Source: Candidatus Collierbacteria bacterium UBA2277
GTDB lineage: Bacteria > Patescibacteriota > Microgenomatia > UBA1400 > MFAQ01
Length of the DNA stretch: 64,000 bases
NCBI GenBank assembly: GCA_002347045.1
Contig: DDWV01000001.1
Span: 419,844 to 483,843 of the forward strand
Direction of reading: 5' to 3'
Each line of letters opens with the position of its first letter. The stretch's first letter is position 1. This document shows, piece after piece, positions 3,894 through 35,290 of the stretch. Both the position numbers and the translations under genes were made by a program. The notes beneath the pieces are model-generated. The model did no database searches. It was not told the DNA's origin and saw only the letters and a program-made list of their open reading frames with translations.

Positions 3894-4719
3894 ATTTTAA
3901 TATCGATATATTATTGATTCCACCAACGAAAGCTTTATGCAAGTTAAAACATAAAGTGTGGTAATTCAAATAATAAAGATAAAAATCGGATACATTGACT
4001 CCCGACTCTAGAAATTCCATGTCGCGGTAGTTAGCTTTTATTCGATACCAATATAAAAACTCCCACAGGTTTAAATCTGTACTCGTTAGGAAATTAGTAT
4101 TATTAGCTCCTGTGAGGCGTTTTATATTTCTTCTTCTCTTAAAATCGTCTTTTTTGTAATCCAAAATCTTTTTAATTACTTGCCTGTATCTGGTCCTTGG
4201 ATCGGGATTTCCGATTACGATATTACTTCCCGACGGTATCATCCAAGATGAAGTTCTGGTCGCTGGAATAATTGAATTAAAATATGGCTCATTAAAAATG
4301 ATTTCATTGTTTCTTATTAATTCTTTAAGCCTGTGGTTTACAGCTTCATGTGTATTACTTAACCAACTAATATCATCATCGATTAGCCATTCTAGAATAA
4401 GGAGAAGATTGAAGAAGAGGTAATAACTTTTAACAGGAATCCACGAACTACATATTTGTGCGTAGTCCCTAAACTGATTGATTTGATCCATTTCAGAATC
4501 AATATTTTTCATAACTAACTTTGTAAGTCCGACCTTTTTTGTGACTTGAACTGGGACAGTATTTGAAATAGCAGAAAAATGTGCGGGAATGTTAATTGTC
4601 AGACCTCCAGAAATACCACTAATAAAGTTAAGGTAATTGGAGTGTGTGGTAAATTCTGCGTTTACAACTGGGGTAGATCCCACTGTCCTCCAACCAGAAC
4701 CGAGGTATGTTGCCGGCAT
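3874..4719 (-). CDS. hypothetical protein (281 aa)
   Basis: ORF; start codon overlaps the peptidase stop (4719); same operon as the ATP-grasp genes. Confidence 0.55.
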   Translation of the reverse strand: MPATYLGSGWRTVGSTPVVNAEFTTHSNYLNFISGISGGLTINIPAHFSAISNTVPVQVTKKVGLTKLVMKNIDSEMDQINQFRDYAQICSSWIPVKSYYLFFNLLLILEWLIDDDISWLSNTHEAVNHRLKELIRNNEIIFNEPYFNSIIPATRTSSWMIPSGSNIVIGNPDPRTRYRQVIKKILDYKKDDFKRRRNIKRLTGANNTNFLTSTDLNLWEFLYWYRIKANYRDMEFLESGVNVSDFYLYYLNYHTLCFNLHKAFVGGINNISILKYGINMF

Positions 4720-5228
4720 TATTTATAAACCGCGATCATTTGGCGAATGACCATGTCTTCCCATTTTTCGATATGGTCTGAGGTGAAGTCAAACCAAACT
4801 CGGATAAAATCTTCTTTGAGAAGCTTTCTCATTCTGCCAACTTCTGGATCTTGGAGATATATATTTTCCTCGTCCAAACCAACTACCACAGAATAGTGGC
4901 CGTCTGCTAAGTCATCTTCGTCGTAATCAGCCCTGCCTCTCGTCATCCAGTTCACAATTACAGGTGCTTTTTTGCCCAAAGCAACTTGGATGTCCTCAAA
5001 AGATGCAAAATTCTTTATTTCAACTTTTAGTCCTTCTCCTTCTAGTGTCCTTTTTATATCTTCGTCGCCAATTCCCAGATCATCGTCCTTGTTGGAAAGA
5101 ATAGCCACTTCAGCCTCGGTTTTATCGATGCCATAAAAATCCAAGACCATTTTAATGACGGCTGGGCCACAAAAACTACCATGTAGTGTTTCTTGAAAAG
5201 GTTTGACGGGAAGTAAGTTAGTATCCAT
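4719..5228 (-). CDS. papain-like cysteine peptidase, C39-like (Peptidase_C39_2/BtrH-like)
   Basis: N-terminal SFCGPAV catalytic Cys context and later DGHYSVVVG His context, ~170 aa size typical of C39-like domains. Confidence 0.55.
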   Translation of the reverse strand: MDTNLLPVKPFQETLHGSFCGPAVIKMVLDFYGIDKTEAEVAILSNKDDDLGIGDEDIKRTLEGEGLKVEIKNFASFEDIQVALGKKAPVIVNWMTRGRADYDEDDLADGHYSVVVGLDEENIYLQDPEVGRMRKLLKEDFIRVWFDFTSDHIEKWEDMVIRQMIAVYK

Positions 5229-5240
5229 GCGTATATTGTA

Positions 5241-6533
5241 CTATGTTAAGAGATTTTTCAGTTCTTCAGCAATATTTGTGGCTATTCCCAGATCATTCCC
5301 TATTGCCACATAACCCAAGATATGGTCAGTTTCATTAATTAAAGTGATAATGATTCCCTTTTTACTATCTTTTGAGTATATAAGGGTTGATACCCGAGAT
5401 AATAGCTCCCCGATTGATTTAATATCATCAATGTATTCAAAATGGTCGTTTGAGATAAAAGAGTGGTTTTGAAAATCGGCACCAAAAAGTCTTTTAGCGA
5501 GATCGTAAACATGCGTGCCACCTGTTCTGCGCGCATTTGTTTCTACGGCAAATATTTCTCCTGTTTTGGAAATTACATAATCAATATCAAAAATACCTTG
5601 ATAGCCCAGAGACTGGAAATGTTTTCCTATTACCAGAGCGGATTCTTCTAGCTTCTTTGCAATATCAAGAGGAATAGATCCATTGCCGACAACTGTTCCC
5701 TGAAACTCACCATTGATGACAATCTGTCCACAGAGATAGGTGATTTTTACTTCTGATTCCGTAACAAACAATTCAGCTGAAGGTGTTCCACCACCCACTG
5801 TCGCATCAACATCAATAAGTTCCTCAATAATATACGGCCCATTTGACCAAATTGTCTCAATAGTAACTTGGTTAATAAGAGAATCTGTTGTAGTCTGAGG
5901 ATCGTCAACTAAAATTAAACCCCATCCTGATTCTCCTTGATCGGCTTTGAGGGCGAAAGGTCGCTTGTTTGTTTTGAACCAATCGATTTTATTTTCTAGT
6001 TCCTCTATGGTTTGACAAATATAACCTTCAGGACAGCTAACGTTTAACTTTTCAACTTCTTTTCTAAACCCTGACTTTGAGTCCAAATATCTAATGAGAT
6101 CATACCCACCTTTTGATGGTTCGCCATCGACAAAGACATCTATTCCAATTTCTCTGGCTTTCTCGACTAATTCAAGAAAGCTTGATGTGATAGCATAAGG
6201 AGAAATAACAACATCTTTTTCACCAACTAATTCTTTGAAATTATATAAATCTATTGAATTTGAGAGATTTAATCCCCCATTCCTTGGAGAATAATTGCTG
6301 GTGTTTGAAAATTTCAAAATATTTGAATTGAGATCGAGAAGTTCTTCGGGGATTGAGAATGGGGTAACCACAATTTTATTGTCATCCTCCCAAAAGAAGG
6401 CTCTCTGAGAAAGGGCTAGCTCATGCCTGATCCTCTTTTGTCCTTCATCAGAACCACCGCTGGATACCAATATATCCTCAAAAGCTTCTGCTGTATTGGC
6501 GAATACAATGTTTATTGATTTTTCTGTTTCCAT
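5241..6533 (-). CDS. ATP-grasp domain ligase (carboxylate-amine ligase, biotin-carboxylase-like clade)
   Basis: C-terminal half with AVETNARRTGGTH (ExN.R ATP-grasp motif), 430 aa. Confidence 0.55.
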   Translation of the reverse strand: METEKSINIVFANTAEAFEDILVSSGGSDEGQKRIRHELALSQRAFFWEDDNKIVVTPFSIPEELLDLNSNILKFSNTSNYSPRNGGLNLSNSIDLYNFKELVGEKDVVISPYAITSSFLELVEKAREIGIDVFVDGEPSKGGYDLIRYLDSKSGFRKEVEKLNVSCPEGYICQTIEELENKIDWFKTNKRPFALKADQGESGWGLILVDDPQTTTDSLINQVTIETIWSNGPYIIEELIDVDATVGGGTPSAELFVTESEVKITYLCGQIVINGEFQGTVVGNGSIPLDIAKKLEESALVIGKHFQSLGYQGIFDIDYVISKTGEIFAVETNARRTGGTHVYDLAKRLFGADFQNHSFISNDHFEYIDDIKSIGELLSRVSTLIYSKDSKKGIIITLINETDHILGYVAIGNDLGIATNIAEELKNLLT

Positions 6534-6588
6534 TATCTTGATTTTAAATATAAAATACCCCCGACGCTATGTGCATCAGGGGTATATC

Positions 6589-7593
6589 TTAAACTAACTT
6601 TTCGCGACTGGCCGCTATGAGAATAATTCCCTCAATCAGATCTTCAAATCCTCGACCAGTGAAACTTGCCATCTTGGTCAAGGTATTATTTAATCCGTGA
6701 GAGTTTGGACCAATTCCAGGATTGTAATTGACTTCGAGTAGATAAATTTCTCCATCTGGGGTAACTCGGAAGTCCATTCGGGCATAATCACGGCACTCTG
6801 TAGCTCGAAAAGCGGTTTTTGTGAAATCAACCAGTTTTTCAATCACCGAACTTGGAAGATCTGCTCTGACCATCTTTTCCGTTTGCCCTCCCCATTTGTA
6901 CTCAAACGATCTGATTTTCAACAAATCATCTTGAGTATCGGGGAATTGAAACTCGAGCGGAGGAAGAACGATCAAGTTTGTGCCATTCCCAATTACGCCA
7001 ACCGAAATTTCTCGACCAACAATGAAAGACTCGACAATGGCCTGCTGGAAATAGTTAGAAATGATGTGGGCAACTTTGGCTCTCAACTCTGTTTCGTTTT
7101 TCACAACACAGTCTGCGTAAATTCCGATACTGCCTTCTTGCCGGATAGGTTTAACGATCGCCGGAAAGGAAATATTGGATTGGAGAACTTCGTCTGGACT
7201 ATCAAATCTTTGATATGGTGTAACAGGTACTCCATACCCCTGACAAACTAGTTTGCTTTTCTCTTTGTCCAAAGTTAGTTGCATATTCAAAGATGAAGCT
7301 CCTGTGAAAGGAATCCTCAGAGCTTCGAGCATAGCAGGGACAAGGGGTTCGTCTGTGTTTCCACCACCGAATGATTCAGCCATATTTAGAACAAGATCGA
7401 AAGTGCCGATCCGGCGGACAAGATCATTCCAGAGATTTTGAGTGGTTTCGAGGGTTTCGACCTCGTAGCCACGAGCCAGAAGCAATTCTTCGACAAGAGG
7501 GACAATAATTTCGATTTCGTGCTCACAGATGATATCTGAGGCCACTCCGACTCCAAGATCTCTAGCGACATTGTAAAGTACAAGGATTTTCAT
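6589..7593 (-). CDS. ddl: D-alanine--D-alanine ligase family ATP-grasp enzyme
   Basis: FGGGNTDEPLVPAMLEALRIPFTGASSLNMQLTLDK (Ddl N-domain pattern), AIVKPIRQEGSIGI, RMDFRVTPDGEIYLLEVNYNPG. Confidence 0.6.
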   Translation of the reverse strand: MKILVLYNVARDLGVGVASDIICEHEIEIIVPLVEELLLARGYEVETLETTQNLWNDLVRRIGTFDLVLNMAESFGGGNTDEPLVPAMLEALRIPFTGASSLNMQLTLDKEKSKLVCQGYGVPVTPYQRFDSPDEVLQSNISFPAIVKPIRQEGSIGIYADCVVKNETELRAKVAHIISNYFQQAIVESFIVGREISVGVIGNGTNLIVLPPLEFQFPDTQDDLLKIRSFEYKWGGQTEKMVRADLPSSVIEKLVDFTKTAFRATECRDYARMDFRVTPDGEIYLLEVNYNPGIGPNSHGLNNTLTKMASFTGRGFEDLIEGIILIAASREKLV

Positions 7594-7648
7594 AAATCCT
7601 CCTTTTTTATATATAGGATGATGTATTCTACACTATTTCCACCATCTT

Positions 7649-8533
7649 GTGCCTAGAATGTTTTTTGAATTATATTATCCAAGATCTCGATTTTTAGCTA
7701 TAATGCTAGGCATGGAAATGATGCATGGAGTTTTAACCTCTCTTTTTAAAATTGACACGGAAAAAGGTAAGGAAATCGGCTCAGCGTTTACGCCACTGTG
7801 CCATGAATTTAATCAATTTTTAGATCTACCGGCAGACAAAAAAGACATGCTTTTAGATCCGATTCTTTCTGTTATGAAAAAACTTGGAAGGATAGCAGAA
7901 GCAGTAGACCGATACGAAATCCTAGAAGAAGAGAAGATGGAAAATTTGATTAAACGAGCACAAAAAGACCAGAGTAGTGTTATCTTAAAACACGAAGACA
8001 GCTCAACCCAACTCGAAGGTGCGGTTGAAGACGTGATTAACAGTTCAAAGGCGGCTCTTGATGCGGCGGTGAAAATATTGAAACCATTATGGGGAATAAA
8101 TCTAACGACTTACGGTGATGCGGGTGAAAAGGTTGTAAAGGCTTTAAAAAGAAATATTCCTGATAAATTCCAACCTAACATAATCACGCTAGCTGAGGTT
8201 ATTCAGGAATGCTCTCCGTGGATACGGCTAATAAGAAACTTAAGGACAAAAACTGAACACCTGGGTGTAAATATAGTATCTCCTCTATCGGTGAGTATTA
8301 CTGACAAATTAGCTACAAAAGAATACCCTCTTGTTGACAAAAGTATACCTGCCAAAGAATTTGTAAACATTACATACAATAATATTTTCGTTTTTTTACA
8401 AGAATTCATTGTCTTATCTCTAGGATCAAGACTTTTATCAGGAATGATACCAGTCGTCGTAAGTGGTGAGGGGAAAAATCGAAAATTTGGCATAGCAATC
8501 AAAACTGTCGAGGCTCAAGACCCAAAAATCTGA
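7649..8533 (+). CDS. hypothetical protein (294 aa; alternative start at 7712 after a TATAAT at ~7699)
   Basis: ORF only; no recognisable domain. Confidence 0.5.
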   Translation: MPRMFFELYYPRSRFLAIMLGMEMMHGVLTSLFKIDTEKGKEIGSAFTPLCHEFNQFLDLPADKKDMLLDPILSVMKKLGRIAEAVDRYEILEEEKMENLIKRAQKDQSSVILKHEDSSTQLEGAVEDVINSSKAALDAAVKILKPLWGINLTTYGDAGEKVVKALKRNIPDKFQPNIITLAEVIQECSPWIRLIRNLRTKTEHLGVNIVSPLSVSITDKLATKEYPLVDKSIPAKEFVNITYNNIFVFLQEFIVLSLGSRLLSGMIPVVVSGEGKNRKFGIAIKTVEAQDPKI

Positions 8534-8534
8534 C

Positions 8535-8995
8535 TTAGTGCCTGCGAAGCAGGCACTTTGGCCGACAGGCCAATGCTGTCTCAAGGATTTAATACCCACT
8601 GATAAAATTTTCTCTTAATCAGTGGGTATTTATGGCGAGGAGATGCAATCTATATAGATTGCTTCGTCATTTCATTCCTCGCAATGACGATGTTCTTCCG
8701 AGCCATATATTGAGAAAGCTTCGCCACAATCACTAGATGTGATCTTGTGGCGAACATATAAGTGCGACAGCGATAGCTGGCACTTGCTCGCAAGAGCAAT
8801 CATCCCGACCGCAGTCGGGATACAATATTGGTATCGCGCGCAAGGGGTTCCGCCGGCAGGCGGTGGCGAACCGCGAGACACGAAGTGTTGAGCGGTGAGC
8901 CAATAGATTAGTAGTGGTCCCGAAAATAAGTTCGAATTTCGTTATAACAGACAACAGAAAGTGACAGAAAACGTAAAAAATAGGTTATGACCTAT
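8535..8995 (-). repeat. GC-rich structured mosaic repeat, copy 3 (composite: module D on + strand at left, modules B+A on minus strand at right, ~250 nt hairpin-rich unique core)
   Basis: 8541-8575 matches copy-2 5' part; 8860-8955 is the reverse complement of copy-1 5' part; 8960-8995 on + strand carries TGACAGAAAACGTAAAAAAT...CCTATAA end motif; several perfect hairpins (e.g. 8591-8628). Confidence 0.55.
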
Positions 8996-8998
8996 AAC

Positions 8999-9027
8999 TT
9001 GACTTATCGAGTGTGTCGGGGTATAAT
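8999..9027 (+). promoter_or_regulatory. consensus sigma70 promoter TTGACT-N17-TATAAT
   Basis: Exact -35/-10 hexamers with 17-nt spacer; followed by AGGAGG RBS and ATG at 9076. Confidence 0.6.
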
Positions 9028-9075
9028 TTCTGAATTCAACTGTTCTTTTAGCAGCCAAGGAAAATAGGAGGAGTA

Positions 9076-9279
9076 ATGAGAGTAAAAGTACTATATGCAC
9101 TCCCCAGGGAGAGCATATCAGAGTATTGTGATAGGCTTGTTAAACAAGCAATACATCAAAACTCCACTGTATATGGAGTGTTTAATACAATTTCTTTTAT
9201 TGCTTGCCCGGACACAGCCCCAGAGTATCTAGAGGGGTACTATAGTGGTCGAATATATAGCCCGATGAATGAAAGGTAG
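9076..9279 (+). CDS. hypothetical small protein (67 aa)
   Basis: Strong promoter + AGGAGG SD 8 nt upstream of ATG. Confidence 0.5.
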   Translation: MRVKVLYALPRESISEYCDRLVKQAIHQNSTVYGVFNTISFIACPDTAPEYLEGYYSGRIYSPMNER

Positions 9280-9345
9280 TGTATATGTTCCCCATGAAGA
9301 TGGGGAATTTTTTTATGAAATATTTCTTTTGGATGAAGTTTGGCT

Positions 9346-10119
9346 TTATTTTTGAGACAGCTTGAAAACAAGAGACATGGAAAAGATGATAGCCTCTATA
9401 ACAATGATAGTTGGCCCTGCCGGAAGTCCCCAAGCTTGTGAAAAGAGTATTCCCAGAACTGTTCCAACGGCTCCTATTACGACCGCCCAAAATTTGTATT
9501 CAGGAAGTGATCGACTAATATTTCGTGACGCTCCGGCAGGTATCGCAATTAGGGCCACAGTAATCAGACCGCCAACCAGATAGACCCCAAGGGCGACAAC
9601 GACAGCAATTGAAAGAAGATAAACAAGATTGTAAAAAGAAACATTTATTTTCTTGGCGATAGCAATTTCTTCGTTGATATTTATGAGTATCATTTTTTTG
9701 TAAATGCGCTTGACACTGAGATATACAAGGACACTCAAAACCGTAACCATTGCTGTCTCCCATCCAGAGATCTTCATGATATTTCCGACTAGCGCCTCTT
9801 CGGCTTGGTCTATAGGTAAGAATAGTAGCGATGTCCCTACGCCAAAGGCGAATATTACGGCTGTTAGATTTTCCATTGGTAATTTTGTTTTTTTCTCTAG
9901 AAACCAGATTAGAATCGCTCCAAAAATTACAAAGGGGAAGACTCCAAGAGCAAAACTAAAATGATAAACGATTGCAAGTGCTACTCCCGGAAAAGCAAGG
10001 TGAGCTAGAGGCCCAGCGACAACAGACATTTTTTTTGAAAGCATTAAAGTGCCAAGATATGCCGCGGCACTACTTATTAATAGGCCACTAATTAGACTGA
10101 GGATTAGTTGTGTGTTCAT
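9346..10119 (-). CDS. znuB: metal (zinc/manganese) ABC transporter permease, ABC-3 family
   Basis: Polytopic membrane protein; operon context with ATPase and Fur-family regulator. Confidence 0.75.
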   Translation of the reverse strand: MNTQLILSLISGLLISSAAAYLGTLMLSKKMSVVAGPLAHLAFPGVALAIVYHFSFALGVFPFVIFGAILIWFLEKKTKLPMENLTAVIFAFGVGTSLLFLPIDQAEEALVGNIMKISGWETAMVTVLSVLVYLSVKRIYKKMILININEEIAIAKKINVSFYNLVYLLSIAVVVALGVYLVGGLITVALIAIPAGASRNISRSLPEYKFWAVVIGAVGTVLGILFSQAWGLPAGPTIIVIEAIIFSMSLVFKLSQK

Positions 10120-10838
10120 AGGTTTTTTGCTGGGTGATCATAAAGTTTAATTTCCATACCAAACACTTGTTCAAGCATGTTTGGAGTGAGAATTGATTTT
10201 GGCTCTCCAAAACACAGGTGTTTCTTTTGACTAAGACAAAGTACCTTTTTGGAGTATTTGTAAACAATGCTAACGTCATGAGTTACCAAAAAGATTGTTA
10301 GTTTTTGAGTTTGTTGAAGCTTGTGAAGAAGAGAGTAAAGATTTTCTCCTCCACCAATATCAATCCCTGATGTTGGTTCGTCCAAAAAAACTACCTGTGG
10401 ATTGTCGATGAGAACCCAGGCTATCAACATTCTCTGAAACTGACCTCCCGAAAGAGTATATGCGTTTTTAAATAGGAATTTTGCATCGAGACCTACTAGC
10501 TTTAGTGATTTAATAACCTCATCGGTTTTGTGGACAGGCTCTTTGAGATCGAAAATATCTTTAACTGTCAGAGGCATGCCTTTTATGGCTTGTTGGTTAA
10601 GATTTTGAGGTAGATATCCGATTGAGACTTTTTTGTTCCAGATTATTTCCCCATTAAACGGTAGTATTCCTAGAATGGCTTTGAGAAGAACGCTTTTTCC
10701 AGAGCCATTGGGGCCTAATATAGTAATAGTATCTCCTTCGTTTACCGAAAAGGATAAGTTGTTGTGAACAATGTGGCCATCTAAAACAACATTTAGATTT
10801 TTGATTTCAAGTAATTTGCTCATATACATTTTTGGCAC
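10116..10838 (-). CDS. znuC: metal ABC transporter ATP-binding protein
   Basis: Walker A GPNGSGKS, signature LSGGQFQR, Walker B VVFLDEP. Confidence 0.8.
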   Translation of the reverse strand: MPKMYMSKLLEIKNLNVVLDGHIVHNNLSFSVNEGDTITILGPNGSGKSVLLKAILGILPFNGEIIWNKKVSIGYLPQNLNQQAIKGMPLTVKDIFDLKEPVHKTDEVIKSLKLVGLDAKFLFKNAYTLSGGQFQRMLIAWVLIDNPQVVFLDEPTSGIDIGGGENLYSLLHKLQQTQKLTIFLVTHDVSIVYKYSKKVLCLSQKKHLCFGEPKSILTPNMLEQVFGMEIKLYDHPAKNL

Positions 10839-11224
10839 AAGCCAAAGAATTCAAGATCGTGTTTTTGAACATGAAAGTGATATTGGTTAGTAATAAACTT
10901 TTCTGTTTTTGAAAAACTGTGTTTCATTTTTATTGGAATGATCTTTTTGCATTTTGAACAAAACAAGTAATGATGGTGTGTGCTGGTAGATATCTCGAAG
11001 CGCCTTTGGCCATCGCCAAGTATCACCTCCGAAATGAACCCAGAAGATACAAGTTTTTTTGTTTCACGATAGATGGTGGTTTTGTTTGCCCTGACTTTAT
11101 ATATAAGATCTAAGGCTGTTTTTGGACAGCCTGATTCTGATAGTATTGACAATATTTTAAGTCTAATTGGAGTTTCTTTTAGGTTTAGCTCTCTGAGACG
11201 CAACTTTATATCATCGGTTGACAT
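10820..11224 (-). CDS. zur: Fur-family metalloregulator (likely Zur)
   Basis: wHTH N-terminus, HHHY...CSKC...CQKC metal sites; upstream of znuCB. Confidence 0.7.
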   Translation of the reverse strand: MSTDDIKLRLRELNLKETPIRLKILSILSESGCPKTALDLIYKVRANKTTIYRETKKLVSSGFISEVILGDGQRRFEISTSTHHHYLFCSKCKKIIPIKMKHSFSKTEKFITNQYHFHVQKHDLEFFGLCQKCI

Positions 11225-11236
11225 ACTTCAATGTAA

Positions 11237-11251
11237 TGCAACTAAGTTGCA
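11237..11251. promoter_or_regulatory. 7-1-7 palindrome TGCAACT-A-AGTTGCA in the zur promoter spacer (putative Zur/Fur-type operator)
   Basis: Perfect inverted repeat lying between TTGACA and TTACAT hexamers on the minus strand immediately upstream of zur ATG. Confidence 0.4.
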
Positions 11252-11272
11252 CTTGTCAAGAATTTTCTGTGT

Positions 11273-12238
11273 CTATAGACAGAGAGCGTCTTCACCCGTG
11301 ACTTCATCCCCATTTGATTCACCAATTCCAGGAATAGGATCATAGTCTTCCATAGGTTTGGCTGGGATTGGGGTAACGTATTTGACTTCGTTGTTTAAAG
11401 GAATTTTGGCGTTTGGCAGAGTGATTATCTTTTGACTCTTAAGCCAGTTATCAAAACCGACCCAGTAAAGATCTTTTAAACAGAGTACTTTCTCGTACTC
11501 TTGCCACCATTCGAGACGAGTACCCCCAAGATATGCGTGAGAAACAATTATCATGTTGTCTGGCTTCTTGGCGATACTTTCCTCAAGTATCTTGCCGAAC
11601 TCTATTGCGTCAGAACCTCTTGCCCAAAGACTGTAATCACAGAGTGATCCTCTACCCATAGGTTCTCCAACATCGACATTGGTAACAGAGATCACTTTTG
11701 CTTTGTATTCTTGTGGCTGATAAATAACAGCCTCAACGTCCTGAGTTCCGCGACCTAAGATAAATGGAATACCTAGAGCATCTGCTGCTTTGAGTGTTGT
11801 TTCATCGTAGGCGAAGTATCGACTGCCAAAAACTCTCATTTCCTTGCCGGTGATACTCTTTACCGTCTCTTTTGCTTCTTTGAGATATTTGTACTGGTCA
11901 TCGTAAGTCATGTCCCAAAAAGCAGCTTTGTCGTAGCCACCCGCTATTTCGTAACCTTTATCAGCTAGACGTTTGAAAACTTCTTGGTTTTCCTTTAGGA
12001 CATTGTCTTGAACTTTCACCAGAGCAGTAAGATTGCGTGCGTCTAGTTGTTTTTCCCATTGAAGAATACCGTCTATGCTTTCGAACTCAATAAGCATAAG
12101 CATGGTGTTGATTGGGCGATTGGAAATTTTGTTGAGTACTTTGGGGTTTATCAATAGAAGAGAGACTACAAATAGTATTACCAAACTGAGCAAAAACAGA
12201 GTGTATTTTTTATAAGAGCCGACCTTCTTTTTTTTCAT
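11273..12238 (-). CDS. secreted/membrane-anchored protein, possibly polysaccharide deacetylase-like
   Basis: N-terminal TM anchor; weak resemblance only. Confidence 0.3.
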   Translation of the reverse strand: MKKKKVGSYKKYTLFLLSLVILFVVSLLLINPKVLNKISNRPINTMLMLIEFESIDGILQWEKQLDARNLTALVKVQDNVLKENQEVFKRLADKGYEIAGGYDKAAFWDMTYDDQYKYLKEAKETVKSITGKEMRVFGSRYFAYDETTLKAADALGIPFILGRGTQDVEAVIYQPQEYKAKVISVTNVDVGEPMGRGSLCDYSLWARGSDAIEFGKILEESIAKKPDNMIIVSHAYLGGTRLEWWQEYEKVLCLKDLYWVGFDNWLKSQKIITLPNAKIPLNNEVKYVTPIPAKPMEDYDPIPGIGESNGDEVTGEDALCL

Positions 12239-16294: not shown

Positions 16295-17290
16295 TTATTG
16301 ATCAGTGAAGAGTTTATCAATTTCCCTGACTGCTTTTCTTTGACGTATTTTTGGAGAGCCTGAAACAGTAATGAACTTTAGATTGTGTTTTGTAAGTTCA
16401 TCCTTAAAACGTTGGTGCATTTTATGTCTTATCTTTTCTCCGTCTCTTGTACCATCTTGAACAAAGGGAATCTCATCTTCAGTAAGAATATATAGACTTT
16501 TATTTTCTGTGTTTGCAACCGTATCAAGAGTGGGAAGAAGAAAGCCAATGTATCTTTCGTGCCATAGCCTAGTTGCAAAAGCGTCTGTGTCGCAGACTAG
16601 AAGCTTGTTAGCCTTTCTGGCGAAAAAGTTTTCTAGAGTATTTTGAGTCTTGGCAATATGAACAAATTCATCTGAGGTCCATTTTTCTTGATCTACCAAA
16701 GAAGCTCTTCCTTCGGAGTAGGTTCGGCCATATTCTGGGACCCAGGAAGTGTGATAATAATTCGCTAGCGACTTTGCTAGTGTTGTGGTTCCTGTTGATT
16801 CAGCCCCAAGAATTACCACCCTTTTGGCATAATAGGCCCGGACAGGTTCGCTTATAAACTCCCAGTACTTGAAAGGGTTGGATCGAACTAGTGAGCCTGA
16901 GATTGGAATGATTTTTCTATCGATATCTACCAATACATGTTTACTTCCCATACATTTTGCATATTTAATTCCATATTTTTCTGAAGAAAACACAGCTTCA
17001 GGAACAAACCCAAGCAATCTTTGAGTAATATCAGCCCATTCTTGCGAAATATCAGTTGAGATTGAGTCGAGCCGGTCGTTGTGGATACATATCTTTACGT
17101 CGACCTGTGGGTATAGCTCTTTTATCCAATTTTCACGAACATTTGGATCGAAAGAATTTTTGCTGTTTTGGCAAATAATAACGGATACTTTTTCTGACCT
17201 ATTTATAGCTGTCTCTAGTAAAAACTGATGACCTTTGTGAAAAGGTTGAAACTTTCCAATTATTAAGCCAGTTTTAAATAACTTTTTCAT
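16295..17290 (-). CDS. nadR: NadR-type bifunctional NMN adenylyltransferase / ribosylnicotinamide kinase
   Basis: GKFQPFHKGH (HxGH nucleotidyltransferase), second P-loop ILGAESTGTTTLA; adjacent pnuC; start taken at internal MKKLF (ORF track begins 17335). Confidence 0.7.
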   Translation of the reverse strand: MKKLFKTGLIIGKFQPFHKGHQFLLETAINRSEKVSVIICQNSKNSFDPNVRENWIKELYPQVDVKICIHNDRLDSISTDISQEWADITQRLLGFVPEAVFSSEKYGIKYAKCMGSKHVLVDIDRKIIPISGSLVRSNPFKYWEFISEPVRAYYAKRVVILGAESTGTTTLAKSLANYYHTSWVPEYGRTYSEGRASLVDQEKWTSDEFVHIAKTQNTLENFFARKANKLLVCDTDAFATRLWHERYIGFLLPTLDTVANTENKSLYILTEDEIPFVQDGTRDGEKIRHKMHQRFKDELTKHNLKFITVSGSPKIRQRKAVREIDKLFTDQ

Positions 17291-17945
17291 ATGTTCTATT
17301 GGTCTTATACCAGTCGATGAGGCCTTTGATTGCATTTATTAGGAAGGCAAAATATAGAAGTGAAAGGAAGATAACTCCTTTTTGGTAGTAGAGGAAAACA
17401 CCAATAATGTCGACTATTATCCATAGATACCAGTTTTCAATTTTTCTTTTTGCAAGATAGATATTGGCCACGAAACTCATGGCTGTTGTGAAAGCATCCA
17501 TAAATGGAAAAGAAGCGGCTACAGGAAATAGAACTGGAAATATTAGATGGATATTTGACATAAAGTAACTCAAAAAAATGGTAAGGATAACGATAGAGAG
17601 TATACCAATCAGATTAAATTTCTTGGTACCAAAGCTGACTTTGAGTTCGTTGTTGGAATCCTTTTCATCCTTTTTGGGGTGTGTCCATAACCACCATCCC
17701 CAAAAGCCGGTGAGAAGATAGTATATTTGTTCAAAAAGATCAGAGTAAAGTTGAATTTGATAAAACAAGAAACCAAAAAGGACTACACCGACAAGACCAA
17801 TTGGCCATGATAGTGTCTTGTTTTTTGCAGAAAGATATACTGACCAGCCGGTAAACATTGTTCCGAAAAACTCTAGATAACTCATAGGATAGTTTAATAA
17901 AGTAAAGAAGGTGGTATTTATATCGAACAGTGTTTGTAAGGTCAT
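17274..17945 (-). CDS. pnuC: nicotinamide riboside transporter
   Basis: ~7 TM with Trp-rich segments (TGFWGWWLW); pnuC-nadR synteny. Confidence 0.7.
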   Translation of the reverse strand: MTLQTLFDINTTFFTLLNYPMSYLEFFGTMFTGWSVYLSAKNKTLSWPIGLVGVVLFGFLFYQIQLYSDLFEQIYYLLTGFWGWWLWTHPKKDEKDSNNELKVSFGTKKFNLIGILSIVILTIFLSYFMSNIHLIFPVLFPVAASFPFMDAFTTAMSFVANIYLAKRKIENWYLWIIVDIIGVFLYYQKGVIFLSLLYFAFLINAIKGLIDWYKTNRTYEKVI

Positions 17946-18064
17946 ATTTCTTTTTTTGTAATAACAGAATATTCTATAACGACTCAGCGTGTTGTCAACA
18001 CTATTAGAGCATGTCTTAGAGTGATATAATTTGATATATTCTAGCTCATTAAAAAAGGAGAGAT

Positions 18065-18334
18065 ATGTCTAATATTGATAACTTTGAGATATCGGAAAGA
18101 ATTTTTATAAGAATGACCGTAGATGACTCCTCTATTCCTGCAATTGTAAACGTCCTAAAAGAAGTAAATCCTAACGCAAGCAACGAGGATTTGATTCTTT
18201 TTATGGCAGAGTGTGTGGAAAGATCTCATAAGCCTAAAGATGAATCTTTTATGAATGCTTCCATACAGCCATCAAACCAAAGGCGTATGACTTCAAGTTC
18301 CTGCACTGGAAGTAGCACAAGTTCCTGTTGCTAG
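18065..18334 (+). CDS. candidate RiPP precursor peptide (89 aa) with C-terminal Cys/Ser/Thr-rich tail MTSSSCTGSSTSSCC
   Basis: Strong SD AAAGGAGAG; stops 10 nt before radical-SAM gene; Cys-rich C-terminus. Confidence 0.45.
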   Translation: MSNIDNFEISERIFIRMTVDDSSIPAIVNVLKEVNPNASNEDLILFMAECVERSHKPKDESFMNASIQPSNQRRMTSSSCTGSSTSSCC

Positions 18335-18344
18335 AGGAAACAAT

Positions 18345-19274
18345 ATGAATACTGTTTCTGTGGAGTTGCTTGGAACAAGGGTAAATTGTAGGGGCTATTG
18401 GTGTAGTCATAGCTTAGAAAATGGGGGTGATCCTTTGAGTAACCCTCAGTTTATCTTTTACCTGATGGCTACAGATCAATGCAATGGTCTTTGTAGTTTT
18501 TGTGATATTCAGCGGAAATTTTTCAATAAACACGAACTCGATCCAGATACGGAAAAACTTCGGATAATTCTGACTGACCTTTTTGGACGAAATTTGATAA
18601 GCAAAATTTCCATTACTGGCGGAGAGCCGCTTCTTGATCCAAATAAAACTAACAAGCTAATAAATGTTATTTTTGAAGCCAATCCAGAAGCAATAGTGGA
18701 CATAACAACTAATGGCAGCTTGCTAAAAAACCTGCTGCTTTTGGAACAGGTAGACAAGATATCTACTATTCATATAAGTAGGCATCACTTTGAAACAGTG
18801 AGAAATAATGAGATCTTTAGCCTTAGAACGGCGAGTTTTGAAAAGATCCAACAGTATGCAGACAGATTTTTTGGAAAAATAAGCTTAAATTGTTGTTTGG
18901 TTCCTGGCTATGTTGATTCGCCTCAAATGGTGGAGCAGTATTTGGACTGGGCCGCAACTATTAGGGGATTGAAAAGCGCTGGATTGATAAGTTTAATCAA
19001 AAAAAATGTGTTTTGTGAAAACAGCCAAGTAAATGAAAAAATTATTTTAGAGTGGATAGATAACGATCCAAATAATATTGCTCATAACTACAACTATGAC
19101 ACTGATATCTGTGAGTGTAGATCTTGGCAAAGGATACCGAGTACCTATCTACCAATTACTTGCTTTTGGTGGAAAGTAAAAAGACTGAGTATTCCTTACT
19201 GTAGACAAATGGTATTTACAGCAGACAATAGGCTTACAGTGAACTTCAAAGAGATCGGTGAAATTCAAGTATAG
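18345..19274 (+). CDS. radical SAM enzyme, putative peptide-modifying maturase with C-terminal extra-Cys (SPASM/twitch-like) region
   Basis: CNGLCSFC (Cx3Cx2C), ITGGEPLL SAM motif, later CC/CxC/C residues (NCCLVPG, DICECRSW, ITCFWW, PYCRQ). Confidence 0.6.
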   Translation: MNTVSVELLGTRVNCRGYWCSHSLENGGDPLSNPQFIFYLMATDQCNGLCSFCDIQRKFFNKHELDPDTEKLRIILTDLFGRNLISKISITGGEPLLDPNKTNKLINVIFEANPEAIVDITTNGSLLKNLLLLEQVDKISTIHISRHHFETVRNNEIFSLRTASFEKIQQYADRFFGKISLNCCLVPGYVDSPQMVEQYLDWAATIRGLKSAGLISLIKKNVFCENSQVNEKIILEWIDNDPNNIAHNYNYDTDICECRSWQRIPSTYLPITCFWWKVKRLSIPYCRQMVFTADNRLTVNFKEIGEIQV

Positions 19275-19280
19275 TTAATA

Positions 19281-19308
19281 GCCAACGAGAAATCGTTGGC
19301 CTTTTTTT
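19281..19308 (+). terminator. rho-independent terminator (GCCAACGAgaaaTCGTTGGC + T8)
   Basis: Perfect 8-bp stem then TTTTTTT. Confidence 0.7.
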
Positions 19309-19310
19309 GA

Positions 19311-19838
19311 TCAAAAAATGTCTTCAGGCGGCAGAAACTCTTCTCCGTTTGGAGCACTTTTGTACTCGACTTTTAACCACTCTATGTAGTCGCAGCCGGT
19401 AGCTTGTTTGGCCTCTCTATCCCAACCTGAGGTGGAGCACTTTTTCATTTTTTTACCATTTGCCGTGGTATAGAGAACTAGAGGTTCTCCACACTTGGGG
19501 CACTTTTCGTCGAGTTTTTCTGTTGTGCCGTTTATCCATTCAACATAGTCGCAACCTGTAGCTTTTTTCTCTTCCTTATCCCAGCCTCCGGCACTACATT
19601 TTTTCATCTTTTTGCCAAAGCGGGTGACTTGAAGAACTAGAGGTTCTCCACACTTTGGGCACTTTTCGTCGAGCACCTCAGGCTCTATTTCTAGCCATTT
19701 TACGTAATCACAGCCCTCTGTTTTGTGGGTTTCGGTGTTCCATACGCCCTTTGAACAGCGTTGGAGCTTACGACCAGTAGGTGTTTCAATTACTTCTGAT
19801 AAAGTTGATCCGCATTTGGGACATTTTTCTTCTTCCAT
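19311..19838 (-). CDS. protein composed of three tandem topoisomerase-type C4 zinc-ribbon modules
   Basis: Three repeats of CPKCGxxL(x11)GKKMKKCSxxGWDxExKxATGCDYxxW, similar to Topo I C-terminal Zn fingers; ~174-bp DNA repeats. Confidence 0.55.
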   Translation of the reverse strand: MEEEKCPKCGSTLSEVIETPTGRKLQRCSKGVWNTETHKTEGCDYVKWLEIEPEVLDEKCPKCGEPLVLQVTRFGKKMKKCSAGGWDKEEKKATGCDYVEWINGTTEKLDEKCPKCGEPLVLYTTANGKKMKKCSTSGWDREAKQATGCDYIEWLKVEYKSAPNGEEFLPPEDIF

Positions 19839-34947: not shown

Positions 34948-35290
34948 TAGGGGTACTCCCGGGTGCTGGTGAGGAACGCTCCTTCGAGTAATCGAAGGGG
35001 AGGAAAGTCCGGACAGCTAAAAGATAAGGTGACCAGGGAAACCTGGTTTTCCGCCAAGTGATTGGTGGAACGCGATAGGGCCACAGAGACGAATAAAGGT
35101 GAAACGCTCTTGGATACAAGAGATTTCTTAAGAGTAATTTTAAGAAAGTGGTAACCCGCCCTGCTGCAATCGACGAATTGGGATTAAGGTATCTTTTCCG
35201 CCCCAAAAGTCTCGAGCATTAGACAGATGTTCCTCCTTGACAGAATCCGGCTTACTATGACCTGGGAGTCCCGAAAGGGTTTCCGCCAAA
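34948..35290 (+). ncRNA. rnpB: RNase P RNA (bacterial type)
   Basis: GAGGAAAGTCCGGAC, GGTGAAACG, ACAGAATCCGGCTTA conserved blocks; P1 pairing GGTACTCCCGGG / CCTGGGAGTCC; TATAAT just upstream; ORFs 34860..35084 and 34928..35206 are spurious. Confidence 0.8.

Follow-up and report, generated by a model that had tools for sequence, protein, structure and literature searches.

The gene pair in the window

The DNA analysed here (the window) is a 64,000-nucleotide (nt) stretch of contig DDWV01000001.1 from Candidatus Collierbacteria bacterium UBA2277, and our subject is a two-gene unit within it that encodes a small protein ending in Cys (the partner) and a radical S-adenosylmethionine (rSAM) protein. 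The unit comprises the following features:

18022–18030, + strand: putative extended −10 promoter element of the unit, TGATATAAT, read from the sequence
18065–18334, + strand: partner open reading frame (ORF), 89 amino acids (aa), preceded by a Shine–Dalgarno (SD) sequence and ending in MTSSSCTGSSTSSCC (...SSCC)
18345–19274, + strand: rSAM gene, 309 aa, with a CX3CX2C motif, a GGEP motif and a match to Pfam Radical_SAM
19281–19308, + strand: intrinsic terminator ending the unit, with a hairpin at 19281–19300 followed by a T-run

An earlier note on this DNA had described the 89-aa ORF with its SD sequence, a 10-nt gap, the 309-aa rSAM protein with its CNGLCSFC and GGEP motifs, and a terminator closing the unit, and each of these was recovered at the same position. 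The SD sequence is AGGAG at 18056–18060. The two genes are separated by 10 nt, with GAGGAA at 18334–18339. In the rSAM protein, CNGLCSFC occupies residues 46–53 and GGEP residues 92–95, and additional Cys residues occur at positions 20, 183, 224, 256, 258, 270 and 284. The terminator hairpin has an 8-bp stem with five GC pairs and a 4-nt loop. In homologous loci (designated by L numbers throughout), the −10 element is kept as GTGATATAATCTGAT in L001, L003 and L050 and occurs in variant forms in L005 and L052. Minus-strand ORFs over the pair region were short and unsupported.

A partner protein with a terminal Cys accompanies the enzyme

The analysis drew on 102 loci taken from genomes, viral contigs and metagenomes, of which 76 carried an rSAM gene of this family. 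These formed 44 clusters at 80% identity, and 42 were assessable after start-codon artefacts and contig-edge cases had been corrected. In 41 of the 42, an adjacent ORF of 76–211 aa on the same strand had Cys as its last residue, against a background of 5.7% for ORFs ≥ 60 aa encoded in these loci. Homologous pairs in relatives, which the earlier note had proposed to look for, were thus found almost throughout. The exception was L073, whose partner ends ...GGCS (Cys-Ser). The partner gene lies downstream of the rSAM gene in L023 and L072 and is one gene away in L017. Among the partners collected, 39 of 40 ended in Cys and 12 had no other Cys; the residue at position −2 was mostly H, R, S or G. 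A sequence search with the 89-aa ORF returned a single homologue, and the positional analysis was decisive. An independent profile of a Bacillota clade with partners ending ...PHC added 75 partner clusters, nearly all 95–96 aa long, of which 71 ended in Cys, 49 had a single Cys and one ended ...HCS; none of the 75 was named or fused. The rSAM gene and its partner form an obligatory pair in which the terminal Cys of the partner is universal.

Two Cys-Ser ends were observed, in L073 (973–1230, ...GGCS) and in P0216 (...PHCS), where the penultimate Cys may be tolerated or the final Ser trimmed.

The earlier note had read the small ORF as a Cys/Ser/Thr-tailed peptide dedicated to the rSAM protein. 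The co-conserved upstream ORF with an important Cys holds, and the Cys/Ser/Thr-rich core as a conserved feature does not. The window partner has its Cys at positions 80, 88 and 89. The Ser/Thr-rich tail with a second Cys 8–9 residues upstream of the terminal one marks the clade of the window, since only the terminal Cys is universal among partners; many phage partners likewise end in a tail with two Cys.

An AlphaFold2 (AF2) model of the window partner, built from a two-sequence alignment, contains three helices in residues 7–54 with a predicted local distance difference test (pLDDT) score of ca. 90, followed by a disordered linker and tail with pLDDT < 50, in which the flexible tail spans ca. 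35 residues. No PDB structure matched this fold, and no NCBIfam precursor model matched the protein. Between L001 and L050, the ratio of nonsynonymous to synonymous substitution rates (dN/dS) was 0.22 for the whole partner, 0.087 for its N-terminal domain, 0.46 for the linker and tail and 0.077 for the rSAM gene. Given its kept position in every relative and the overall dN/dS of 0.22, the small ORF is a real gene. At short range, these ratios invert the earlier expectation of a conserved Cys tail behind a variable leader, because the three-helix domain is the most constrained part. A constrained N-terminal 'leader' fits a docking or carrier domain. The partner also diverges faster than the enzyme (23%–38% versus 60%–65% identity). 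The model and these ratios suggest a protein with a constrained three-helix domain and a floppy tail that behaves as a substrate or carrier, and three of its traits, namely evolution faster than that of the enzyme, a varying length and duplication in tandem, favour the role of substrate. The duplication was seen in L041, a 216-kb viral contig, where diverged partner copies (5386–5631 and 5603–5851) stand in tandem upstream of one rSAM gene. These end in ...NSNGRC and ...FRSTTC, and genes for NT5C, Tpt1/KptA and Nampt come next.

The rSAM protein belongs to an uncurated family

The match to Pfam Radical_SAM (PF04055; 42.7 bits, gathering score 29.5, E 8.6e-11) places the enzyme in the rSAM superfamily, and Fer4_12 of Pfam also matched. 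A word-indexed search returned ca. 10 relatives at 60%–65% identity and ca. 7 at 28%–32%, and an exhaustive profile search identified 191 family clusters (50% identity) at E ≤ 1e-30, mostly of 285–330 aa. In a 14-sequence alignment, the CX3CX2C triad, C20, C183, C256xC258, TNG at 122–124, H143, S145, R146 and H147 were invariant (residues 145–147 fall within an SRHH motif at 145–148), and C224 was near-invariant. The CX3CX2C motif, an N-terminal Cys and a C-terminal CxC were retained in all 128 full-length representatives.

The earlier note had called the extra Cys SPASM/twitch-like. The Cys themselves proved conserved, and the label failed: searches of Pfam and NCBIfam at E ≤ 1 gave no SPASM/twitch match (PF13186/TIGR04085), and the conserved extra Cys (C20, C183, C224 and C256xC258) are incompatible with the motif CX9-15GX4C ... 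CX2CX5CX3C. With four to five such Cys conserved, the enzyme may carry an auxiliary Fe-S cluster. No PqqD-type or other RiPP recognition element (RRE; RiPP, ribosomally synthesised and post-translationally modified peptide) was matched by Pfam models, a result obtained without a dedicated RRE-Finder run, and the N-terminal extension was modelled by AF2 as short β-strands (residues 3–8 and 11–16) and not as a winged helix.

The protein scored below the cut-off of every curated NCBIfam family and approached none of them. The best scores, given as bits/cut-off, were 50.4/284 for MoaA (TIGR02666), 47/268 for HxsC and 40.5/180 for prokaryotic viperin, with 17.3/450 for the second of the two viperin models (NF038283/TIGR04278). 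Peptide-maturase models scored 24.9/340 (PapB), 23.6/650 (WgkB), 20.7/600 (ryptide) and 17/300 (YydG, TIGR04078), and the NCBIfam SCIFF models matched neither the enzyme nor the partner. QueE (34.7/260), the glycyl-radical activase PFLA (20.7/231) and NrdG (18–22/126–131) were equally remote, and no NCBIfam model for anaerobic sulfatase-maturating enzymes (anSME) matched. Thus, the enzyme does not cluster with anSME, QueE, NrdG or activase families, and the small ORF is conserved beside it in related genomes; the earlier note had named the opposite of both as evidence against its proposal. PHROGs returned only generic 'radical SAM' families.

The AF2 model of the enzyme, based on 14 homologues, is a partial TIM barrel with pLDDT 92.5. 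Its best PDB matches by Foldseek, at template modelling (TM) scores of 0.5–0.6, were MoaA, viperins, SuiB, BlsE, EpeE, SkfB and AbmM, and the rSAM profile against the PDB favoured a viperin-like protein (58 bits), YydG (53) and MoaA (52). CteB-type maturases were also among its fold or sequence neighbours. A close solved relative was sought by Foldseek and the PDB profile search, both of which gave generic cores only. The MoaA hallmarks are missing from the enzyme: there is no CX2CX13C, and the C-terminus reads ...GEIQV in place of the GG tail. Taken together, these comparisons point weakly to a MoaA/viperin/YydG-like core with N- and C-terminal extensions bearing the conserved extra Cys. The family is uncurated; no curated model, solved relative or paper was found for it.

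NAD-salvage genes are the most conserved neighbours

Next to the pair in the window lie two genes for the salvage of nicotinamide riboside (NR) to nicotinamide adenine dinucleotide (NAD), and an intergenic repeat:

17274–17945, − strand: PnuC NR transporter (TIGR01528, 98.5 bits versus a cut-off of 42.45), divergent from the pair
16295–17335, − strand: NadR-type bifunctional nicotinamide mononucleotide (NMN) adenylyltransferase (NMNAT)/ribosylnicotinamide kinase (RNK) without a helix-turn-helix (HTH) domain, recognised by its AAA_28 and CTP_transf_like domains
17985–18003, no strand assigned: candidate operator-like inverted repeat TAGTGT-N7-ACACTA in the gap between pnuC and the divergently oriented partner gene, where it overlaps the −35 element of pnuC

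PnuC also matched Pfam NMN_transporter (E 1.9e-50), and the PnuC of L014 scored 103.4 bits against TIGR01528 (cut-off 42.45). The window NadR scored 218 bits against TIGR01526 and 156.6 bits against NF005988, below the cut-off of 201; the L073 copy exceeded that cut-off at 222.5. The absence of an HTH domain follows from the NF005988 alignment, which covers 58–403 of 411. The true start of NadR is probably at 17290, which would give a 17-nt overlap with pnuC.

The earlier note had regarded the flanking genes as unrelated, a view that the wider sample overturned. Of the clusters, 18 had PnuC within ca. 2.4 kb of the pair and 16 had NadR/NMNAT, corresponding to 17 of the 20 assessable clusters of the cellular branch. 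These genes were the most conserved neighbours, recurring across relatives of ca. 30% identity and in at least eight gene orders. In the window clade, pnuC is divergent from partner-rSAM, and in L006 the arrangement is convergent. Further orders were pnuC-NMNAT-partner-rSAM (L014, L058 and L077), NMNAT-pnuC-partner-rSAM (L057), partner-rSAM-NMNAT-pnuC (L020 and L024), pnuC-nadR-partner-rSAM (L022, and L019, where prs and cinA/pncC come next), pnuC-nadR-partner-LRR-rSAM, including a leucine-rich repeat (LRR) gene (L017), and pnuC-partner-rSAM-nadR with overlapping stop and start codons (L073). In L064, an NMNAT/NadD-type gene lies directly upstream of the pair. The pair is under selection for linkage to NR/NAD salvage, and we infer that it is functionally tied to pyridine nucleotides. 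When all neighbouring ORFs were clustered without bias, none of the groups that recurred was a protease, ABC exporter or immunity gene, and no peptide aminoacyl-tRNA ligase (PEARL), multinuclear non-haem iron oxygenase (MNIO, DUF692) or releasing protease recurred beside the 44 clusters.

Single or paired copies of the inverted repeat are found at the equivalent intergenic position in L001, L003, L005, L047, L050 and L052, and the copy at 17985–18003 is the only good one in the window, where the pnuC promoter occupies 17998–17971. Together with the extended −10 element, this conserved repeat between pnuC and the partner gene suggests that the divergent genes may be regulated jointly. A riboswitch was also considered for this region, and no match was obtained at E ≤ 1.

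The type of the linked gene differs among lineages. In most of the ...PHC clade of Bacillota (L014, L020, L024, L057, L058 and L077), the NadR-like gene encodes a 168-aa NMNAT-only protein with no RNK domain. A full NMNAT+RNK NadR is found in the window, L006, L017, L019 and L073, and also in L022, an exception within the Bacillota clade. The L014 operon is flanked by genes for an ADP-ribosylglycohydrolase, a HIRAN-domain protein, a DUF6361 protein and a large ResIII/DUF4268 helicase (624–1430, 2366–2662 and 6485–11943), so that its surroundings resemble an island of defence or mobile-element genes. In this locus, the rSAM gene is followed by a conserved ORF of 109 aa.

Other rSAM genes were occasionally found with the family enzyme. 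A HemN-like rSAM gene (STM4012/HemN-type, below cut-offs) stands beside it in L011 (6905–8218) and L021 (87–806), and in P0043 (737 aa) a HemN-like rSAM domain is fused to the family rSAM. L011 additionally encodes a DegT aminotransferase and a flavin reductase. The only neighbour noted in L023 encodes an LRR protein.

A branch of the family in giant phages

Relatives of the rSAM enzyme at 25%–30% identity were found on viral contigs of 155–306 kb and in megaphages of 630–735 kb, always with a Cys-ended partner. Among annotated phage genomes, the family was present only in four megaphage records, which are themselves unannotated. In the phage loci, Nampt adjoins a conserved 43-aa ORF in L039 and L041; genes for Prs and nucleoside deoxyribosyltransferase lie nearby in L038, NMNAT in L039, and Tpt1/KptA and a 5'-nucleotidase in L041.

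This 43-aa ORF accompanies a 260-aa RlmN/Cfr-like rSAM protein in 14 phage clusters. The latter scored 78 bits against the RlmN model (cut-off 290), and when the two polypeptides were joined in silico they were collinear with E. coli RlmN through '...DIDAACGQLAGDV'. The RlmN loop that aligned to the 43-aa ORF holds Cys355, the methyl-carrying residue of RlmN. By this alignment, the two phage proteins are a split RlmN-like methylase that lacks the RNA-binding N-domain. The 43-aa ORF was also considered as a second RiPP precursor and ruled out as such, being the detached C-terminal Cys loop of an RlmN/Cfr-like enzyme. The two halves lie at 4894–5679 and 6897–7028 in L038 and at 4545–5327 and 7227–7370 in L039, and the split enzyme was also seen in L041, L042, L044, L046, L067, L070, L075, L079, L082, L084 and L086. 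The small half has 43–47 aa with an '...AACGQL...' loop, and the partner and family rSAM genes usually stand between the halves.

Proposed function

The reading that we prefer, held tentatively and with rather less than even confidence, is that the locus encodes a dedicated two-component rSAM system that acts on the C-terminal Cys of a carrier protein, alongside PnuC-NadR salvage of NR to NAD+, and not a secreted bacteriocin. The terminal Cys would be the substrate of the rSAM enzyme. In this scheme, the three-helix domain of the partner would dock, and the flexible tail would bring the terminal Cys, with its free α-carboxylate and thiol, into the active site. The extra Cys of the enzyme would hold an auxiliary Fe-S cluster, which the terminal Cys thiolate might ligate, as has been proposed for sactisynthases, and the SRHH motif might bind the terminal carboxylate, which would explain the requirement for a terminal Cys. 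A 5'-deoxyadenosyl radical would then abstract hydrogen, and the Cys would be transformed, most likely via a new C-S bond to an acceptor, into a product that would remain intracellular. A secreted antibiotic-like peptide is probably not the product, since the pair is usually wired into the genes of vitamin-B3 (NAD) salvage.

Several observations weigh against this proposal. Three cellular clusters (L011, L021 and L023) lack PnuC/NadR, and in most phage loci no NAD gene occurs within ca. 6 kb. L011, with its flavin reductase, HemN-like rSAM and DegT aminotransferase, resembles a small biosynthetic cluster. The partner might serve as cofactor or donor and not as the substrate, and the auxiliary cluster is postulated from conserved Cys. 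Moreover, PnuC-NadR is itself mobile, as exemplified by NARP3 (PMC13464706), so its linkage to the pair may partly reflect shared mobility.

NARP3 is also the closest match for the genomic setting: a phage pathway that reconstitutes NAD+ with a two-gene PnuC-NadR system, described in a paper that mentions neither an rSAM enzyme nor a Cys-ended protein (PMC13464706). The window shares with it a PnuC-type transporter and an HTH-less NMNAT+RNK NadR as neighbours, but here two extra genes lie beside or between pnuC and nadR, and they are carried by a small-genome uncultured bacterium, by Bacillota metagenome-assembled genomes and by giant phages, in contrast to the enterobacterial phages of NARP3.

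Alternative explanations

No acceptor residue within the partner was conserved across clades. This absence, combined with the MoaA/viperin-like core and the NAD context, leaves room for a nucleotide as the acceptor, or as the substrate with the partner as a Cys donor. In the latter, unlikely alternative, the enzyme would act on NR, NMN, NAD+ or a relative, and the partner would serve in trans as a co-substrate or cofactor whose terminal Cys is a sulfur donor, H-atom donor, methyl or persulfide carrier or auxiliary-cluster ligand. The closest cores by both profile and fold, MoaA and viperins, modify nucleotides (GTP and CTP), and the pair is tightly embedded among NR/NMN/NAD genes. The phage split RlmN-like enzyme provides an example, in this very neighbourhood, of a catalytic Cys supplied in trans by a 43-aa polypeptide, and the accessory enzymes are RlmN-like or HemN-like where found; enzymes of these two types methylate aromatic sp2 carbons. 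However, the likeness to MoaA and viperins is limited to a generic core (40–58 bits versus cut-offs of 180–284, TM ca. 0.6). MoaA (the GTP 3',8-cyclase) does resemble the window enzyme in size (ca. 300 aa, as do viperins), in having its own C-terminal auxiliary cluster and in using its C-terminal tail in catalysis, but the window enzyme falls far below the cut-offs of both families, lacks the CX2CX13C motif and GG tail of MoaA and has an obligatory, separate Cys-ended partner. The fast evolution, wide length range (76–211 aa) and tandem duplication of the partner are features seen more often in substrates than in catalytic subunits, and a stoichiometric protein co-substrate would be costly; THI4 and LarE are precedents for such co-substrates.

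A more specific and unlikely possibility is that the pair is a new arm of pyridine-nucleotide metabolism, common to small-genome bacteria, Bacillota of gut and rumen and giant phages, in which radical chemistry joins the carrier Cys or its sulfur to a nicotinamide nucleotide from PnuC-NadR or Nampt-NMNAT, giving either a cofactor derived from NAD and tethered to the protein or an altered form of NAD/NMN. If so, in phages the split RlmN-like enzyme could then methylate the product, and the outcome might be, for example, a private NADase-resistant NAD pool or an accessory to NARP-type counter-defence.

The earlier note had assigned the locus to the sactipeptides, ranthipeptides or SCIFF-type RiPPs. 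Its general architecture is indeed RiPP-like, but the class assignment does not hold: there was no match to SPASM/twitch models, RRE or SCIFF, PapB was far from its cut-off (24.9/340), and no exporter, protease or immunity gene recurs beside the pair. As a classical RiPP, the partner would be a leader-core precursor in which the enzyme installs thioether (sactionine- or ranthionine-like) or other Cys crosslinks, the peptide would be released to act outside the cell or as a signal, and the NAD genes would be hitch-hikers on mobile DNA. We consider this distinctly unlikely. The layout of a precursor gene with a strong SD followed by an rSAM gene agrees with it, as do the duplicated partner genes in L041 and, in the window clade and many phage partners, a Ser/Gly-rich tail with a second Cys 8–15 residues ahead of the last. 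In maturases such as AlbA, SkfB, CteB, PapB and Tte1186, too, the rSAM gene directly follows a small ORF with a likely reactive Cys, and the substrate Cys thiolate may bind the auxiliary cluster. The YydG/EpeE, SuiB, SkfB and CteB-type maturases are fold or sequence neighbours of the enzyme, and the YydG/EpeE epimerase (53 bits) is similar in size and is a non-SPASM peptide-modifying enzyme with an auxiliary cluster and a catalytic Cys. However, its curated model scored only 17/300, and YydF-type substrates need no terminal Cys. Unlike the sactipeptide, ranthipeptide and SCIFF systems, the window pair has no SPASM, twitch or RRE domain, reaches no curated maturase family and is set among NAD genes, and its partner is a conserved protein of 76–211 aa. 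SCIFF precursors have six Cys in 45 residues, whereas only the C-terminal Cys is universal here. The Bacillota partners are fixed at 95–96 aa and conserved over the whole protein, and 49 of the 75 have a single Cys. In L073, the pair sits within a pnuC...nadR operon with overlapping codons, and hitch-hiking poorly explains a linkage maintained in at least eight gene orders. Of the readings considered, a secreted sactipeptide or ranthipeptide is the least consistent with single-Cys partners, conserved proteins of fixed length and missing export genes.

Pearlins (TglA/TmoA) and amino-group carrier proteins such as LysW share with the partner a recognition domain and a C-terminal extension. The pearlin pathway, defined by a PEARL ligase, an MNIO enzyme (TglH) and a protease, is built on the C-terminal Cys of a carrier, with an rSAM step in tmo (PMC9303977). 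Here, in contrast, the Cys is encoded by the gene and not added by a PEARL, MNIO and protease are lacking, and the window rSAM is not B12-dependent. Scaffolded biosynthesis of this kind, as for pearlins, pyrroloquinoline quinone (PQQ) or mycofactocin, in which the terminal Cys would be elaborated by the enzyme with HemN-/RlmN-like methylases and DegT where found and then released by cleavage as a diffusible metabolite, for instance a cofactor or antimetabolite akin to pyridine nucleotides, is improbable: the carrier-like build of the partner, the gene set of L011 (flavin reductase, HemN-like rSAM and DegT aminotransferase) and the P0043 fusion are in its favour, but no locus contains a PEARL ligase, MNIO enzyme or releasing protease, a pathway with no ligase that recharges the carrier would be limited to a single turnover, and most loci consist of the pair and NAD-salvage genes only.

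Novelty and distribution

An rSAM enzyme with a dedicated small protein substrate is a kind of system already known. Searches of the literature on PnuC/NadR with rSAM, C-terminal Cys with rSAM, phage NAD with rSAM and RiPPs of the candidate phyla radiation (CPR) found no description of the present pairing. Two hallmarks were without a described precedent among the works found, namely a Cys that is obligatorily the last residue of a dedicated carrier, and insertion into PnuC-NadR or Nampt-NMNAT modules. Systems that pair an rSAM enzyme with a small protein substrate are a major source of new chemistry and of new cofactors such as PQQ and mycofactocin, and the present family is widespread, with ca. 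190 clusters in a small-genome uncultured bacterium, Bacillota and phages of 150–735 kb. Modules that rebuild NAD (NARP1–3) are a central battleground between phages and bacterial immunity, and an rSAM accessory to them would point to a new step or product in NAD biology.

Other features of the window

Immediately beyond the terminator, a gene convergent with the rSAM gene (19311–19838, − strand) encodes a 175-aa protein in which a topoisomerase-type C4 zinc ribbon (CPKCG...GCDY) is repeated three times in tandem. All close relatives keep this gene in synteny but distant family loci lack it, and it is therefore probably unrelated to the pair. No NAD genes other than pnuC and nadR were found in the window. 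The only Rfam family at its gathering threshold was bacterial RNase P RNA class A (34959–35269, + strand, 112.9 bits). The 64-kb window contains no rRNA and has a GC content of 39.4%.

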